This document shows, in pieces, positions 4,761-26,719 of a stretch of 30,455 nucleotides of DNA. Where the stretch lies: the NCBI RefSeq assembly GCF_004010195.1, contig NC_057749.1, forward strand, positions 6,074,862 to 6,105,316, in the 5' to 3' direction. Each line of letters opens with the position of its first letter. The stretch's first letter is position 1. The stretch is from Chiloscyllium plagiosum. Taxonomy: Eukaryota. Position numbers and translations under genes: made by a program. Under the pieces are notes generated by a model. The model ran no database searches. It was not told the DNA's origin and was given only the letters and a program-made list of their open reading frames with translations.

Positions 4761-5271
4761 AAAACTATTCTGCAAAATGAACATGTGATAATAATCAAGA
4801 ACAAGCTACACTAATAACTTAGATATTGTTTCTAAAACTACGGGCAGATCAAGGATAACAGGTCTGTCCCCTTTGACATCCTAGCACATTCATTTTGCAG
4901 AATAGTTTTGCCTTTTCAAATCCAACTCCCTATTATGTCATCAGGTTGGGTGGACCTTAATGCGGCTTCAGAATTAACCATTTCTGAACCATTACCTCAC
5001 ACAACAGTTGTTAAGTGACATGAAAAAAGACAAAGATTTGGATAGAAAGCATAAAAAACCTCAAATTTTGCTGAAAATGGACAAATGCAAGAATGCCAAT
5101 CATGACAATTTATACCTTCGCTGAAAGGGATGATGACTTATTGATAAGTTGTCTCTGATTGGCTGAGATGTTGCCATGGCAAATGCAGGGTGCCTTGCAG
5201 CTCACCAAGCTCTCGGCTACTTCAGAAATGAGCCTAAGTTTAAATCTATTATTTTATTTGGATGGAATGAA

Positions 5272-7340
5272 TCCTTCAACAGTGCAGCACCCTCAGCACT
5301 GACCTTCCAAGAGTGCCCACTCCCTCAGCACTGACCTTCCAACAGTGTCTGTTTCCTCAGCATTGATCCTCCAACAATGCCCCTTCCCTCAGCACTGACC
5401 TTCCACTCGTGCCTGTTTCCTCAGCACTGACCCTCCGACAGTGCGGCTCTCCCTCAGCACTGACCTTCCGACAGTGCTGCAATCCCTCAGCACTGACCCT
5501 CCAATAGTGCCCATTCCCTCAGCACTGACCCTCCGACAGTGCCCGATCCCTTAGCACTGACCCTCCGACAGTGCNNNNNNNNNNNNNNNNNNNNNNNNNN
5601 NNNNNNNNNNNNNNNNNNNNNNNNNNNNNNNNNNNNNNNNNNNNNNNNNNNNNNNNNNNNNNNNNNNNNNNNNNNNNNNNNNNNNNNNNNNNNNNNNNNN
5701 NNNNNNNNNNNNNNNNNNNNNNNNNNNNNNNNNNNNNNNNNNNNNNNNNNNNNNNNNNNNNNNNNNNNNNNNNNNNNNNNNNNNNNNNNNNNNNNNNNNN
5801 NNNNNNNNNNNNNNNNNNNNNNNNNNNNNNNNNNNNNNNNNNNNNNNNNNNNNNNNNNNNNNNNNNNNNNNNNNNNNNNNNNNNNNNNNNNNNNNNNNNN
5901 NNNNNNNNNNNNNNNNNNNNNNNNNNNNNNNNNNNNNNNNNNNNNNNNNNNNNNNNNNNNNNNNNNNNNNNNNNNNNNNNNNNNNNNNNNNNNNNNNNNN
6001 NNNNNNNNNNNNNNNNNNNNNNNNNNNNNNNNNNNNNNNNNNNNNNNNNNNNNNNNNNNNNNNNNNNNNNNNNNNNNNNNNNNNNNNNNNNNNNNNNNNN
6101 NNNNNNNNNNNNNNNNNNNNNNNNNNNNNNNNNNNNNNNNNNNNNNNNNNNNNNNNNNNNNNNNNNNNNNNNNNNNNNNNNNNNNNNNNNNNNNNNNNNN
6201 NNNNNNNNNNNNNNNNNNNNNNNNNNNNNNNNNNNNNNNNNNNNNNNNCTGCACTCTCTCAGCACTGATCCTCCGACAATGCCCGCTCCCTCAGCACTGA
6301 CCCTCTGACAGTGCCCGCTCCCTCGGCACTGGCCCTCCGACAGTGCCTGCTTCCTCAGCACTGACCCTCTGACAGTGCTGCACTCAATCAGCACTGACCC
6401 TCCGACATTTGGGCACTTCCTCAGCACTGACTCTCCGACAGTGCCTACTTCTTCAGCACTGACCCTCCGACAGTGCGGCACTCTCTCAGCCCTGACCCTC
6501 CGACAGTGCTGCACTCTCTCAGCACTGACCCTCCGACAGTGCAGCACTCTCTCAGCACTGACCCTCCGACATTTGGGCACTTCCTCAGCACTGACCCTCC
6601 GACAGTGCCTACTTCCTCAGCACTGACCCTCCGACAGTGCTGCACTCTCTCAGCACTGATCCTCCGACAGTGCCCGCTCCCTCAGCACTGACCCTCTGAC
6701 AGTGCCCGCTCCCTCGGCACTGACCCTCCGACAGCGCCTGCTTCCTCAGCACTGACCCTCCGACAGTGTCCGCTCCCTCAGCACTGACCCTCCAAAAGTG
6801 TCCATTCCCTCGGCACTGACGCTCTGACAGTGCCCGCTCCGTCAGCATTGGCCCTCCGACAGTGCTGCACTCACTCAGCACTGACCCTCCGACATTTGGG
6901 CACTTCCTCAGCACTGACCGTCCGACAGTGCGGCCATCTCTCAGCCCTGACACTCCGACAGTGCTGCACTCTCTCAGCACTGACCCTTTGACAGTGCCCA
7001 CTCCCTCAGCACTGACCCTCTGACATGCCCGCTCCCTCAGCACTGACCCTCTGACAGTGCTCGCTCCCTCAGCACTGACCCTCTGACAGTGCTGCACTCC
7101 CTTAGCACTGACCCTCCAACAGTGTTGCAATCCCTCAGCGCTGACCCTTCGACAGTGCGGCACTTCCTCAGCGCTGACCCTTCGACAGTGCGGCACTTCC
7201 TCAGCACTGGCCCTCTGACAGTGCTGCAATCCCTCAGCGCTGACCCTTCGACAGTGCGGCACTTCCTCAGTGCTGACCCTCCGACTGTGCTGCAATCCCT
7301 CAGCGCTGACCCTCCGACAGTGCCTGCTTCCTCAGCACAG
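5272..7340. repeat. 32/33-bp tandem satellite (consensus about cctcagcactgaccctccgacagtgcnncactc) containing a 674-N gap
   Basis: Dozens of tandem copies are directly visible. N run at 5575-6248. Confidence 0.97.
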
Positions 7341-7899
7341 TGAATGTCTGTTCCTCAAGCATTTGTGAAGAAGTCACAATGTGAGCTGTTCTGATTACCT
7401 TCGATTAAGTGATAAAAGGACATTAAAAGATTAGATGTAACACATGTGAGGAGGATGAGCATCCTTTAATATGTTTAATTTCAATGTAAAGAAACAAAAT
7501 GCCAATACACCTACTTAAGTTGAGATCTAACAGATGGCTTTTAATGTGAAAGTAAATGACGGGTAATCCACACAGGAGCAAATAACAGGCAACTGGCCCA
7601 TAACTAAAAAGGATCCCAAATATTCTTAAATTCATGGAATTGGACAACAGGGAGAGATCAGATGATGCATTATGAACCAGCAAGATGAAGTAAATTTCAT
7701 TTAGGTTTGATTTTAAACTTGGTCAAGTAAAAACAACGGAGACAGCAATTGGTGTGGAATATCCGACTTCAGTATCCTAAAGACAGTGAAGATTAAAATC
7801 AGACAGAGCTTCCTTCCCTGATTATTAACCATGATTCTGACTGGAAAGAGCTCTAGTCTGATCCTTAGGAAATGAAATCAACAGACCAAAAAATATCTG

Positions 7900-21431: not shown

Positions 21432-21460
<29 letters not shown>

Positions 21461-21568
21461 NNNNNNNNNNNNNNNNNNNNNNNNNNNNNNNNNNNNNNNN
21501 NNNNNNNNNNNNNNACACACACACACACACACCCATAGCCACACACACACAGCCCCACACACACACAC
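21432..21568. repeat. (CA)n microsatellite with 54-N gap
   Basis: Directly visible. N at 21461-21514. Confidence 0.97.
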
Positions 21569-22752: not shown

Positions 22753-22994
22753 ATTCACCTGCTCCTCCACCACTGCAGTACCTCTTCAAAGTACCTTCTA
22801 AAATCGGCAATCATCTCTAAAAGGATAAGGACAGCAGCTACATGGAAGCACCACCCCTTGAAATTTCTCTTCCAAGACCCACACAATCCTGGCTTGCAAC
22901 TGTCTCACTGCTGCTTCACTCTCACTGGGTTCAAACTCCTGGAACAGATAGTGTAGCTGCAGCTAGTTATGAAGTTAGCTCATCGCCACCACCA

Positions 22995-23490
22995 ATACCA
23001 ATGGACAACAGGCAGAAAACTAGCCACCAGGAAACATGAACATCAACGAGCCATAAAGTGGCATGACCCTCTCTCACTAGTATCCTTACATATAGATATG
23101 GAAGGACACCACCTCGACTGGGACAACACCCACCCTAGGACAAGTCAAACAGAGACATGCATGAGAATTCCTAGAAGCTTGGCATTCCAACCAGAACTCT
23201 ATCAACAAACATATTCATTTGGATCCCATACATCACCCCCTGAGAAAAAGAACAGGAAATGGCATCACCGTAGGAAATGATGTCACCACAGGAAATGACA
23301 TTACCAACCCAAGGAAACTCAAACATACAAATAGAAAGCAGGAAACACCAGCAGTGCTTCGTCCGGAGGCTCACTGAAGATGTTACCTAGTATGGTGATG
23401 AAACATCTGAAAATGAACCTTTCAGCTCAGTGAGCAAACCTACATCCAGAACCAAAACCTGAGCTACAAATCTTCTCAAAACTCACTAAC
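22995..23490 (+). mobile_element. Penelope-like element 3' end: GIY-YIG endonuclease remnant and 3' terminal repeat
   Basis: TGRKLATRKHEHQRAIK.HDPLSLVSLH..EGHHLDWDNT, then after a frameshift LGQVKQRHA*EFLEAWHSNQNSINKHIHLDP. 18-bp x3 repeat at about 23254-23307. Hammerhead downstream. Confidence 0.88.
23371..23410 (+). ncRNA. Minimal type I hammerhead ribozyme motif (CpG-decayed)
   Basis: tca-CTGAAGA-t-gttacc-tagtat-ggtgat-GAAA-catc-tga. Confidence 0.7.
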
Positions 23491-23811: not shown

Positions 23812-24214
23812 GTTTCTCATCATAATCACTGAATGCAGAAGTCAAATCATTTTAATTAAAAATTTCAGCAGTGCAATTACTCTCGCCCCCTCACTCCTTT
23901 GTTTGCTGATTTTTAAATCATATATTTCAGAAATTTAGTCTTGCAGATATATTTTATGAAGCTTCGGGGAGTACAGAATTAAGCTTCCCTGTCACATTTT
24001 TACTTCAATGGAATCAGTGCCAGTTCCAGAGTTGAGGACAGAATCATGCTTTGATGCAAAGCCTTACCCACCTTCAGGACAGCCCCAGGCGATGCAGACT
24101 GCAGTCGCTGTAAATTTGAATGCAGACACGTAACAGCAGGAGGCCATAAATAACAAATAAACTAAATGAGTGGTTTAGTTTTGGTAGATAGACAAACTTT
24201 AGCTACTAACACCT

Positions 24215-24250
24215 ATTCCTGATGAAGGGCTTTTGCCCGAAATGTTGATT
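24215..24250 (+). ncRNA. Minimal type I hammerhead ribozyme motif
   Basis: CTGATGA (24219-24225)-a-gggc-tttt-gccc-GAAA (24239-24242)-tgttg. Confidence 0.72.
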
Positions 24251-24343
24251 TTACTGCTCTGCGGATGCTGCCTGAACTGCTGTGCTCTTCCAGCATCACT
24301 AATCCAGAATCTGGTTTCCAGCATCCGCAGTCATTGTTTTTAC
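24215..24343 (+). mobile_element. 129-bp hammerhead-headed retroposed element
   Basis: 12-bp TSD ctactaacacct (24203-24214, 24344-24355). Body homologous to the arms of 24401-24561. Confidence 0.85.
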
Positions 24344-24400
24344 CTACTAACACCTGGGGCCAAGCTTCTGCCAAATAGAGCCTATAGATCCACCTAAATA

Positions 24401-24561
24401 GGAGAAAGTGAGGACTGCAGATGCTGGAGATCAGAGCTGAAAATGTGTTGCTGGAAAAGTGCAGCAGGTCGGGCAGCATCCAAGGAACAGGAGAATCGAC
24501 GATTCTCCTGTTCCTTGGATGCTGCCCGACCTACTGCGCTTTTCCAGCAACACATTTTCAG
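24401..24561. mobile_element. Inverted (palindromic) insertion of the hammerhead-element family
   Basis: 62-bp arms 24437-24498 / 24500-24561 with 2 mismatches. TSD atccacctaaata (24388-24400, 24562-24574). Confidence 0.88.
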
Positions 24562-26719
24562 ATCCACCTAAATAAGCAATCAGAGTGTCTGTTTAGTGCT
24601 AATTCACCTTTGACCTGCCGTGTACTGGCCCAGAGGGCAGATTGCCCTCACCCTGTTGAAGAAACATACAGTTAACTGTCTCCCGTTACGTGTCATGGTT
24701 ATTAGACACTCAAAGAAGAAAGGCCTCCTCTTACTGGTTTGAACTTAGGTGTGACAGTGGCCAACACCTGAATTATCCAGCAATAGGATCAATTTCCCAC
24801 AACAGTTTCACAGATGTTTGACTTTGCTGTTGGATGAAACTATAGCAAGGCACTGCAGGAAGTGCCTGTATGAAATCTGATCACGACATATCAATATTGG
24901 GGAGAGTTCAGGCCAGTATTCTGTATCAAATAGCAAGACTTAATTGTGACATTTAGGAGTAAATTTAAGAGTTGTACTGCTAGCACAATGTGGTCAATGC
25001 CTGTGTCTTTTTTTTAACCTTACTCTATTTATTGTCGATCTTTTCTGTCAATACACTGGCCATTTGGCCCATTGGTTCATGCTGTTCTTTATGCTCCATT
25101 TATATCTCTTGTCACCATTCCTCAAACTTCCATTGTTATCTCACCCATTCACCATAATCTTTTGCATCTTTCTCTTTCAAATATTGTTCTCATTTCTACA
25201 TAACTCATCATCCTATTCAACACCAGCATCTGCTTGTGGCTGTCATTTCCACAGGCTCTGGATAAGCAGTCAATTCCCTATTAGGTTTATTACTGACTAT
25301 CTTATGCTTATGGCCCCTAGTTACTGTCCAGTCACACAAGTGGAAACATAATTTTTATGTATCAAATCCTTTCATAATTTTAAAGATCTCCAACAGGTCA
25401 TCCAACAGATTTCTCTTTTCTTAATAGATAGAAAATTGACAAAGTTTGAAATTCTAACCCTCGTGCCTTACTCCATTATGTGCACCAGCCTGTACACCTG
25501 CACATACCACAGCAAACATTTATTTAGCAATCAATTTGTTCTTCAGTTTTTGTTTCAATCTGCTTTGACCTTGGTTTCTGTCAATTTTGCACCCAGTTTG
25601 GCTTTCTAATTCTGTGAAGTCCAATTTTCATCCTCTTGAGTCCTTAGAAACTTTGGTTTTCATTAAGCAAATGAAGAGCGAGATCCAAGGGTTTCACCTT
25701 ATGCCATCCGCATAGTTGCAAGATGTACCAATAATTTGTCTGTTGACTGACCTACCTCAATCGATTCATATCCAGAAAACCCAGACATGATGCAAGGAGA
25801 AACTCAGTGGTAGAGAGTTTTGGGACCTGCAGAAACAAGGTCAAAGGTTCCTCCCCAAAGTATGCTCCACTCACCACACATCATGTCTCAAATCACTCAT
25901 ATGCTGTATCCGAAAGGAATCTATCTAATTAAATTTGAATGAATCACTACTAATTGCTTTCACCATCAACTTAGGAAGCCTATTCTATAGATCAACCACT
26001 AGCTCATTGAAATTATTTCTGCTGATTACTTTTGAATGTAGTCCCCTTCAAGTGCACACTGTGGTCTTTGGTTCCACTTGTCCTGGGCAAGTTGACATAG
26101 CTTGTCATGGTCCAAATTGTCATTTTCTCTTGAGTAATAGTTAATATTAAGTAAACGTTGAACTAAGACTTTTGGCCAAAAATTCTTCATTCTTGATACA
26201 TGCTTATAAGCTGACCACTGACTTTTAAACTAATGTGCATTTGTCCCATGTTTGTTATGGGAGGGGAGTTAGTGTGGACAGTCTGGTGTTTTTTTTTATA
26301 ATTGCTCGTATCACATTTAAATCATCAGAATTAATAAGCTGGGAGTGCAGTTTGCTGCTGAAATCATGACCATGGTCAGCAACCACTCAAATAGCGTCCT
26401 TATCGACAGCTCCCAGGAACTAGCATTAACTTTGACTCCTAGGAAACCTCACTTAAATATAATTCAACCCCGTACACTTTGCTCAAAAACATTTGCACAA
26501 AGTAGATAACAGCTAGTTAATTTAGAATGCTAAAATCAGCTCTCATATCACTTTTCAATCTACTCTTTAACAGTGAGAGCAAACCTAACTTACATTATCG
26601 CTTCTCACATTTCAATCCTTCCATTCCCTCATTTTACAGGTTGCTCTTTTTCTGCAGTGTCATTTCCATACTGCAGTCAATACTCACACTTACTGGCTAG
26701 TTTTATTAATTATCATTCT

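Follow-up and report, generated by a model that had tools for sequence, protein, structure and literature searches.

A probable 129-bp retrocopy of a Penelope-like element that begins at a minimal hammerhead motif in Chiloscyllium plagiosum

What kind of element is a 129-bp insert whose first bases spell out a hammerhead ribozyme core? The insert occupies 24215–24343 of the window, by which we mean the whole 30,455-nucleotide stretch of Chiloscyllium plagiosum DNA analyzed here. As the original prediction stated, it is bounded by exact 12-bp repeats, and the bases adjoining the two repeats differ (Table 1). The same prediction assigned it to a separate non-autonomous, retrozyme-like family mobilized by the machinery of Penelope-like elements (PLEs). 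Our answer keeps the machinery and drops the separate family. We regard the insert, with a probability of about 0.8, as a dead retrocopy of the 3′ pseudo-LTR segment of an abundant PLE that encodes reverse transcriptase (RT) and a GIY-YIG endonuclease; the copy would have been made by target-primed reverse transcription, and it carries the element’s own minimal hammerhead. This reading draws on the anatomy of the insert, its family membership, the graded 5′ ends of its relatives, the tail, the decay of the window copy, and the lack of tandem arrays.

The insert starts with ATTC-CTGATGA-A-GGGC-TTTT-GCCC-GAAA, followed by TGTTG. The predicted hammerhead core at its start is indeed there: CTGATGA-A-GGGC-TTTT-GCCC-GAAA (24219–24242, + strand) is the sole match in the window at up to three mismatches, and none of 100 shuffles gave a match. 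The window copy retains the four-base 5′ strand of helix I and nothing upstream of ATTC. Compared with 55 other copies covering all 129 bp, it has the majority base at 123 of 129 positions. Two of the six departures are CpG-to-TpG changes, at 24243 and 24246, where C is found in 37/55 and 41/55 copies, respectively, and the window copy has T. Since most copies have C at both positions, TGTT is a CpG-decayed CGTC, as had been proposed for the TGTTG that follows GAAA; the related cgacg noted at 24497–24501 is present too. There is a small ambiguity at the right-hand boundary: in family copies, ...TTTTTAC is nearly always followed by C and then usually by T, so the first one or two bases of the right-hand repeat could be element sequence. 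ARAGORN found no tRNA-like gene in 23900–24800, i.e., nothing resembling a tRNA-derived SINE head. The insert is probably a dead retrocopy, and nothing suggests that the window copy is transcribed on its own account.

Table 1. Positions of the insert, its hammerhead parts, and neighboring insertions within the window
Feature	Position	Strand	Details
Left target-site duplication	24203..24214	.	CTACTAACACCT; exact match to 24344-24355
AUUC, helix I 5′ strand (2.4-2.1)	24215..24218	+	first bases of copy; pairs read from sequence
PLE family A 3′-terminal pseudo-LTR retrocopy (probable)	24215..24343	+	129 bp; genomic matches, majority comparison
CUGAUGA catalytic box (C3-A9)	24219..24225	+	motif search
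Unpaired extra A between A9 and G10.1	24226..24226	+	read from sequence
Helix II hairpin GGGC-UUUU-GCCC, G10.1-C11.1 closing pair	24227..24238	+	predicted folds
GAAA box (G12-A15.1)	24239..24242	+	motif search
UGUU, decayed CGUC (15.2, 16.2, 16.1, C17)	24243..24246	+	family’s presumed cleavage site after 24246
GAUU, helix I 3′ strand (1.1-1.4)	24247..24250	+	read from sequence
5′ arm of 12-bp stem (CUGCGGAUGCUG)	24259..24270	+	pairs perfectly with 24319-24330 in predicted fold
Optional ~32-bp PLE tail	24312..24343	+	holds stem 3′ arm 24319-24330; outer 3′ end ...CATTGTTTTTAC
Right target-site duplication	24344..24355	.	CTACTAACACCT; bases adjoining both repeats differ
Left 15-bp target-site duplication, neighbor insertion	24386..24400	.	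AGATCCACCTAAATA; exact match to 24560-24574
Head-to-head inverted pair, 5′-truncated, older subfamily of family A PLE	24401..24559	.	BLAST 77% to family reference
Right 15-bp target-site duplication, neighbor insertion	24560..24574	.	exact match to 24386-24400
Family C PLE endonuclease-region remnant	22987..23371	+	tblastn with L065 ORF, 55-58% identity, E = 5e-24
Decayed minimal hammerhead, subfamily C2	23370..23413	+	CTCA-CTGAAGA-T-GTTACCT-AGTA-TGGTGAT-GAAACATC-TGAAAA

The insert has many relatives, which we refer to as family A. Related organisms carry this family as well. A first look at the 3.56-Gb assembly with the 129-bp query gave 2161 candidates; the best 40 of these were scored, and all 40 match at 95–100% identity across the full 129 bp. 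The four nearest relatives among the scored matches (97% identity) all reach further upstream of ATTC, one by 242 bp, one by 375 bp, and two up to runs of N. Thirty loci were oriented relative to one another: all share the 3′ end ...GCAGTCATTGTTTTTAC, most share the sequence ...cttatctctccacgcttcaggctctctgccttt upstream of ATTC, and their 5′ ends, as mapped by BLAST, are graded from 129 to >400 bp, with some of the mapped ends fixed by runs of N in the assembly. Frequent 5′ truncation combined with a common 3′ end is a PLE trait. Upstream lies an ORF with a GIY-YIG match (PF01541, 23.1–23.4 bits; cut-off 22.6). In one locus (L038), GIY-YIG is part of a 517-aa ORF that contains, in the same open frame, a YIDD motif (...RYIDDCIG...) and a truncated RVT_1 match too weak to reach the Pfam cut-off (E = 0.023); the best language-model cluster for this ORF carries RVT_1 and GIY-YIG (score 0.97), which is a lead, not proof. 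The RT region of the long copies consists of N, and RVT_1 is seen as a remnant, not as a whole domain. A PDB sequence search with the 517-aa ORF gave no match at E up to 1. The ORF linker, FPCHRRNCKTC, has the form CX4CX2C and resembles the CX2-5CxxC linker of Neptune PLEs (PMC8557442), a likeness rather than a placement. Genome-wide, the endonuclease query gave 124,293 first-look candidates. Judging from these sequence matches, the best explanation is an autonomous PLE whose single ORF would encode RT followed by a C-terminal GIY-YIG endonuclease, and the insert appears as the 3′ end of this very abundant element, not as a separate family. The original prediction was therefore right about Penelope machinery as the mobilizer. 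Its separate non-autonomous family gives way to the upstream extension of the relatives and to a near-absence of head-to-tail junctions, of which there are five (see below).

The 3′ side of the family shows further PLE signatures. We number positions from the C of CTGATGA (+1) and use a sample of 33 unique copies, drawn from the first 34 places listed for an internal 23-nt anchor, together with anchor matches in loci already sampled. The 3′ ends fall into two classes ~33 bp apart: 18/33 copies end at +124/+125, with the tail, and 13/33 end at +82 to +98, without it. An optional PLE tail of 30–40 bp has been described before (PMC8557442; PMC11167929), and two adjacent internal RT start sites account for it in the study by Frangieh et al. 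(PMC11167929). Folding of the window copy predicts a 12-bp stem (z = −3.5) between the tail and +41 to +52 that encloses the inner RT start site; an intact copy is predicted to form a shorter stem, of 8+5 bp. Three of the six departures of the window copy from the majority improve the predicted stem, in a combination unique among 56 copies, and we take them to reflect chance or a rare subfamily. The family A stem may recall the stem-loop at the Anolis RT start (PMC11167929).

Two kinds of junction complete the PLE picture. Head-to-head inverted, 5′-truncated copies are common (24401–24559 in the window; loci L011, L012, L028, L071, and L081), and about 8 of 100 tails run on into conserved internal sequence (CCTNNTTGATTTTAACC...), with the ORF ATG ~45 nt beyond the tail in these copies. 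Exact tail-to-internal junctions number 1,189 genome-wide. Thus, both the partial tandems known as pseudo-LTRs and the adjacent inverted truncated copies that mark PLEs are found. Among 16 informative 5′ repeats adjoining the internal region, seven comprise the tail only (starting at +93 to ~+113), one starts at ATTC, and the rest start elsewhere.

The transposition steps can be proposed by analogy with the Anolis PLE. The GIY-YIG endonuclease would make staggered cuts in the target, 12 bp apart, and target-primed reverse transcription would then produce the window copy. RT would have started from the outer of two internal sites, hence the tail of the window copy, and cDNA synthesis would have stopped 4 nt past the CUGAUGA box, on its upstream side. 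The reference system is PAc, the Poseidon PLE of Anolis carolinensis, which Frangieh et al. examined in vitro in 2024 (PMC11167929). PAc has RT and GIY-YIG in one ORF, a hammerhead near the repeat/ORF junction, and, as in family A, two adjacent internal RT starts that yield the optional tail; both target strands are cut and extended, which fits the inverted pairs seen here. The two elements also differ. The ORF of PAc starts inside the hammerhead, with the RT start 111–118 nt into the ORF, whereas the ATG of family A lies past the tail. PAc prefers ATT targets, whereas the window target is CTACTAACACCT. Lastly, the accessible description of PAc mentions no hot spot of 5′ ends at the hammerhead.

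Family A does have such a hot spot. The base concerned is the A of ATTCCUGAUGA, which marks the hammerhead’s 5′ edge and precedes the CUGAUGA box by 4 nt. Among the first 100 of 52,436 matches to H-N11-ATTCCTGATGAAGGGC, 39 are immediately preceded by unrelated or inverted sequence, with ~8 of these 39 junctions, by hand count, perhaps cut a few bases earlier. In the anchor sample, 5/33 copies start within −3 to +3. We also aligned three runs to a long copy (L056:1150–1700, in which ATTC is at 1497–1500). In each of them (147 reads, 43 contigs, and 62 contigs), the highest-ranking “loose end before” place is position 1497, and the flanks of these loose ends show low agreement. Depth rises ~5- to 10-fold at 1492–1510 and falls at 1626–1627, the top “behind” places; older subfamilies with upstream sequence too diverged to align may add to the step. 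Several inverted pairs have both arms ending at the hammerhead 5′ edge. Ends were sampled in ~130 copies in all, and by extrapolation the ATTC-start class comprises ~2×10^4 copies. The notion of a tiny unit starting with a hammerhead is therefore sound insofar as the ATTC-start copies form a large discrete class; that this class is a family of its own does not follow.

The hot spot raises the prospect of a distinct non-autonomous mini-element of ~95–131 nt, extending from the hammerhead as far as the RT start site, with source copies or RNA of its own, and copied in trans by the PLE protein. The discrete ends among the first 100 matches, the loose ends and depth changes at 1497 and 1626–1627 of L056, and the inverted pairs with both arms ending at the edge all speak for such a unit. 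In addition, PLE RT starts internally on any RNA that holds its site (PMC11167929), and non-autonomous PLE derivatives are known (PMC8557442). However, the supposed unit cannot be told apart in sequence from the 3′ ends of long copies, all four of the window copy’s nearest relatives reach beyond it on the upstream side, the unit has no evident promoter or, by ARAGORN, tRNA-like gene, and RNA reads are about equal on both strands, as expected for copies embedded in other transcripts. Moreover, 129 bp at ~4% divergence is too short to resolve lineages among the sampled copies. We consider a mini-element with its own lineage unlikely, and prefer to see the insert as a retrocopy of the PLE itself.

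Recombination between the terminal repeats of a full-length insertion, leaving a solo pseudo-LTR, is much less probable still. It would leave flanking target-site duplications, as with a solo LTR, and elements with two repeats exist, as attested by the 1,189 tail-to-internal junctions. However, with one of 16 informative 5′ repeats starting at ATTC and seven comprising the tail only, full-length copies rarely carry the 129-bp repeat that recombination requires, and the extrapolated ATTC-start class far exceeds the junction count.

A retrozyme in the strict sense, i.e., a tandem hammerhead unit cut into monomers that are then circularized, is hard to credit here. Animal non-LTR retrozymes resemble the insert in being short non-coding hammerhead units related to PLE pseudo-LTRs, and they are presumably moved by PLE protein (Cervera and de la Pena 2020, PMC7229834; Li, Clavereau and Pollet 2026, 10.64898/2026.07.22.740005). 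The dimer-dependent type of hammerhead motif and the PLE link fit what has been proposed for them. Yet retrozymes are defined by tandem arrays, with mostly canonical type-I hammerheads, whereas family A has the minimal form and five tandem junctions in 3.56 Gb: the tail followed by ATTCCTGATGAAG within 10 nt occurs at five genomic sites, versus 52,436 unit-start matches. There is no unit-to-unit joint among the joints listed in the L056 alignments, and one of 33 copies starts at the cleavage site.

The hammerhead itself is of the minimal type I, Penelope kind, as originally suggested: A9 is followed by an extra base, and a palindrome takes the place of helix III. Helix I can form the pairs C2.1–G1.1, U2.2–A1.2, and A2.4–U1.4 around a U–U mismatch at 1.3/2.3. 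The helix II hairpin appears in both the minimum-energy and the centroid predicted folds, for the window copy as well as for an intact copy, and its G10.1–C11.1 pair joins G24227 to C24238. At the palindromic 15.2–16.2 positions and the U16.1 and H17 that follow, the family majority reads ACGUC; the window copy, with AUGUU, has lost the palindrome. G–U wobbles and U17 are formally possible in AUGUU. The ACGU palindrome of the family may let two RNAs pair, replacing helix III, and, by analogy with known hammerheads, the intact family motif would cut after C17 (GAAACGUC|GA). The motif sits in the terminal repeat: the GIY-YIG ORF is ~330 bp upstream of it, and the 3′ end ~125 bp away. Across the whole genome, CTGATGA-N9-22-GAAACGTC occurs 43,814 times, versus 89 for a reversed control (~490-fold), well beyond what chance would give.

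Two further expectations of the original prediction, recognition by Rfam and covariation in helix II, fared less well. Whether at gathering score or with E allowed up to 10, none of the Rfam hammerhead models (type I, II, III, HH9, and HH10) matched the window, 20 loci that hold intact copies, or one copy of a second PLE family, family C; these misses probably reflect the helix III hairpin that the models presuppose. Between the two closest subfamilies of family A, helix II shows no covariation, and the loop alone differs (TTTT versus TTAT). Within family A, compensatory change in helix II is limited to one or two GAGC/GCTC doubles per 100 rows listed, beside many singles, about what would be expected under neutral decay. 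Covariation is visible only against family C.

Family C is an unrelated PLE with a GIY-YIG-like ORF (a weak match, E = 0.017). Its motif, CCA-CUGAUGA-U-GUUACCU-AGCC-AGGUAAU-GAAACGUC-UGG, has a 7-bp helix II and a 3-bp helix I that differs from that of family A. Among the 100 rows listed, counted by hand, C2.3–G1.3 (60/66 GCCA copies) is replaced by U2.3–A1.3 in another subfamily (25/28 CTCA copies), and helix II pairing is kept between subfamilies via wobbles. A chance hammerhead resemblance in an ordinary repeat, for which the missing Rfam match and the weak helix I might be cited, is scarcely credible given the ~490-fold enrichment, the same architecture with compensated helices in family C, and the presence of all PLE-hammerhead sequence features listed in PMC4209133.

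These features come from the minimal hammerheads (min-HHRs) reported from PLE pseudo-LTRs by Cervera and De la Pena in 2014 (PMC4209133). Family A shares with them the CUGAUGA and GAAA boxes, the unpaired base between A9 and 10.1, the G10.1–C11.1 pair, the palindromic 15.2–16.2 (ACGU) without a helix III hairpin, a short helix I, the location in a PLE terminal repeat, and a massive spread in which most motifs stand singly in truncated copies. There are also differences. Helix II is 4 bp in family A, versus the 6–8 bp stressed in PMC4209133 and the 7 bp of family C. Helix I of min-HHRs has ~4–5 bp, versus three pairs around the mismatch in family A and 3 bp in family C. The window copy, in addition, has lost both CpGs. 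PLE hammerheads are known to cleave poorly in vitro (PMC4209133).

The locus is thus mostly ordinary: a decayed, 5′-shortened PLE retrocopy with a minimal hammerhead, i.e., a new example and not a new kind. The only unexplained part is the hot spot at the hammerhead 5′ edge. Plain random 5′ truncation is insufficient, because ~39/100 hammerhead-bearing copies share one start base. We considered several specific causes and set them aside. Hammerhead cleavage predicts ends at +29, which are found in one of 33 copies (L083), and, reasoning from sequence, no alternative pairing puts a cleavable UH site at −4/−3. Microhomology between ATT and the cut target is excluded for the window copy, whose empty site, ...ACACCT|GGGG, lacks ATT. 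If new copies had inserted into older ones at ATT, tail|ATTCC junctions would result; there are five of these, and the window copy has non-PLE flanks. An extra G derived from a cap is also unconvincing: G precedes ATTC in 8/39 non-family junctions (hand count), which we take as near the background rate. Other ribozymes offer a parallel in form. HDV-like ribozymes cut at their own 5′ edge; the hammerhead cuts 3′ of its core. As the cut falls at +28/+29 here, known chemistry cannot make ATTC ends. The likeness to elements with HDV-like ribozymes is that many copies begin at the first base of the ribozyme motif; such ribozymes, as cited in PMC4209133, occupy the 5′ ends of the non-LTR retrotransposons R2, RTE, and L1Tc.

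Our best guess, which is also the simplest of the readings left, is a template RNA that frequently started at ATTC. RNA data neither back nor contradict such a start: one raw RNA run (X22) gave 1315 reads, about equally on both strands, with no place where many molecules begin or end, and a second (X23) gave no matching reads. The single ATTC start among 16 informative 5′ repeats weakens the case for a start site shared with full-length copies; a site used mainly for short RNAs is made less likely, but not refuted, by the same count. The sequence ttATTCC fits the loose initiator pattern YYANWYY. Transcription starts inside the pseudo-LTR have been reported for Penelope of Drosophila virilis and for a Chlamys element (PMC8557442). 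Building on this, we put forward a tentative proposal, with the odds somewhat against it: an RNA 5′ end may form at the first nucleotide of the minimal hammerhead, by a transcription start or a processing step, and the resulting RNA of 95–131 nt, from hammerhead to RT start site, may be copied efficiently through internal RT initiation, yielding the commonest form of the element (~39/100).

If this proposal were true, the PLE hammerhead would be tied to the template RNA’s 5′ end, and a mini-element would have been created by internal RT initiation, not by deletion. The literature already contains PLE min-HHRs, the dispersal of single motifs within truncated copies, the tail, and the inverted pairs. 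To these, the window adds a clean, well-dated example, and the genome adds a very large natural data set, in which motifs number in the tens of thousands and two PLE families show compensated helices. The point of possible importance is a hot spot present in one PLE family and absent from the other: in family C, among the 100 rows listed and read by hand, nearly all have family sequence upstream, with at most ~3 possible junctions. If the ATTC edge is a real RNA end, it would provide a handle on the in vivo role of PLE hammerheads, a question open in PMC4209133, PMC8557442, and PMC11167929.

The window holds two further PLE remnants near the insert. In the neighboring inverted pair, the tail is present in the left arm, which lies on the − strand, and missing from the right arm, which lies on the + strand. 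The arms (24434–24498 and 24500–24564) are 95% complementary, with 1 nt between them, and join at cgacg|attctcc, at or beside the hammerhead cleavage site; the pair is without a catalytic hammerhead core. The older subfamily to which it belongs has the motif CTGATGA-A-GGGC-TTAT-GCCC-GAAACGTC-GATTCTCC, with 3,361 exact genomic matches. Microrna-like Rfam hits in this region correspond to the long palindrome of the pair. The second remnant comes from family C, and its hammerhead, of subfamily C2, has decayed by T to A in the CUGAUGA box and by CG to CA after GAAA.

A probable 3' boundary of the family A Penelope-like element (PLE) can be placed from the first 100 genome-wide matches. Nearly all of these continue ...TTTTTAC with a C, usually followed by T, and for this reason the true end of the element is probably ...TTTTTACC(T). 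In several copies (e.g., those at loci L025 and L049), CTAC precedes the target-site duplication (TSD).

Family copies elsewhere in the genome show two further features. First, in internally deleted derivatives, i.e., L056:1135-1500 (G000:C1:688276-688641) and copies at L075 and L029, the first 90-160 nt of the element, a stretch in which the ORF begins, are fused directly to the 3' untranslated region, with breakpoints that vary between copies. Second, among copies retaining the internal region, the conserved sequence that follows the optional tail and opens the ORF (loci L093-L112), 7 of 16 informative 5' ends cluster within the tail, from +93 to ~+113 (the C of CTGATGA in the hammerhead being +1). 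This clustering suggests either an RT stop, at the stem or protein site, or the start of the messenger RNA.

The copy in the window differs from the family majority at six positions, three of which (24260, 24261 and 24326) lie within its stem and convert a mismatched 8-bp stem into a perfect 12-bp stem. Two of these three changes are also present in the copy at L008.

Selected features of the window
Feature	Position	Flanking TSDs	Description
Stem of the window copy	24259-24270 / 24319-24330		12 bp
Inverted pair	24401-24559	24386-24400 and 24560-24574	head-to-head; older subfamily of family A PLE
Family C remnant	22987-23413		second PLE family; endonuclease region, then hammerhead

The inverted pair next to the window copy is flanked on both sides by a 15-bp TSD. 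Only one of the two arms carries the tail, and the junction between the arms falls at the presumed hammerhead cleavage site or ≤3 nt away. The catalytic hammerhead core is absent from the pair. Weak microRNA-like Rfam matches here merely reflect the palindrome that the two arms form.

In the family C remnant, the endonuclease region was identified by tblastn (E = 5e-24); behind it, at 23370-23413, lies a minimal hammerhead that has decayed and whose helix II is 7 bp long.

Between 36% and 70% of words sampled from one family copy are present in sequencing runs from four different organisms, indicating that the PLE family, as judged from these shared words, is common to several related organisms.

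Elsewhere in the window, long tandem-repeat arrays with a unit of about 32-33 bp (5250-7360) are unrelated to the PLE insert, and a run of Ns lies within a CA-rich microsatellite (21460-21514).
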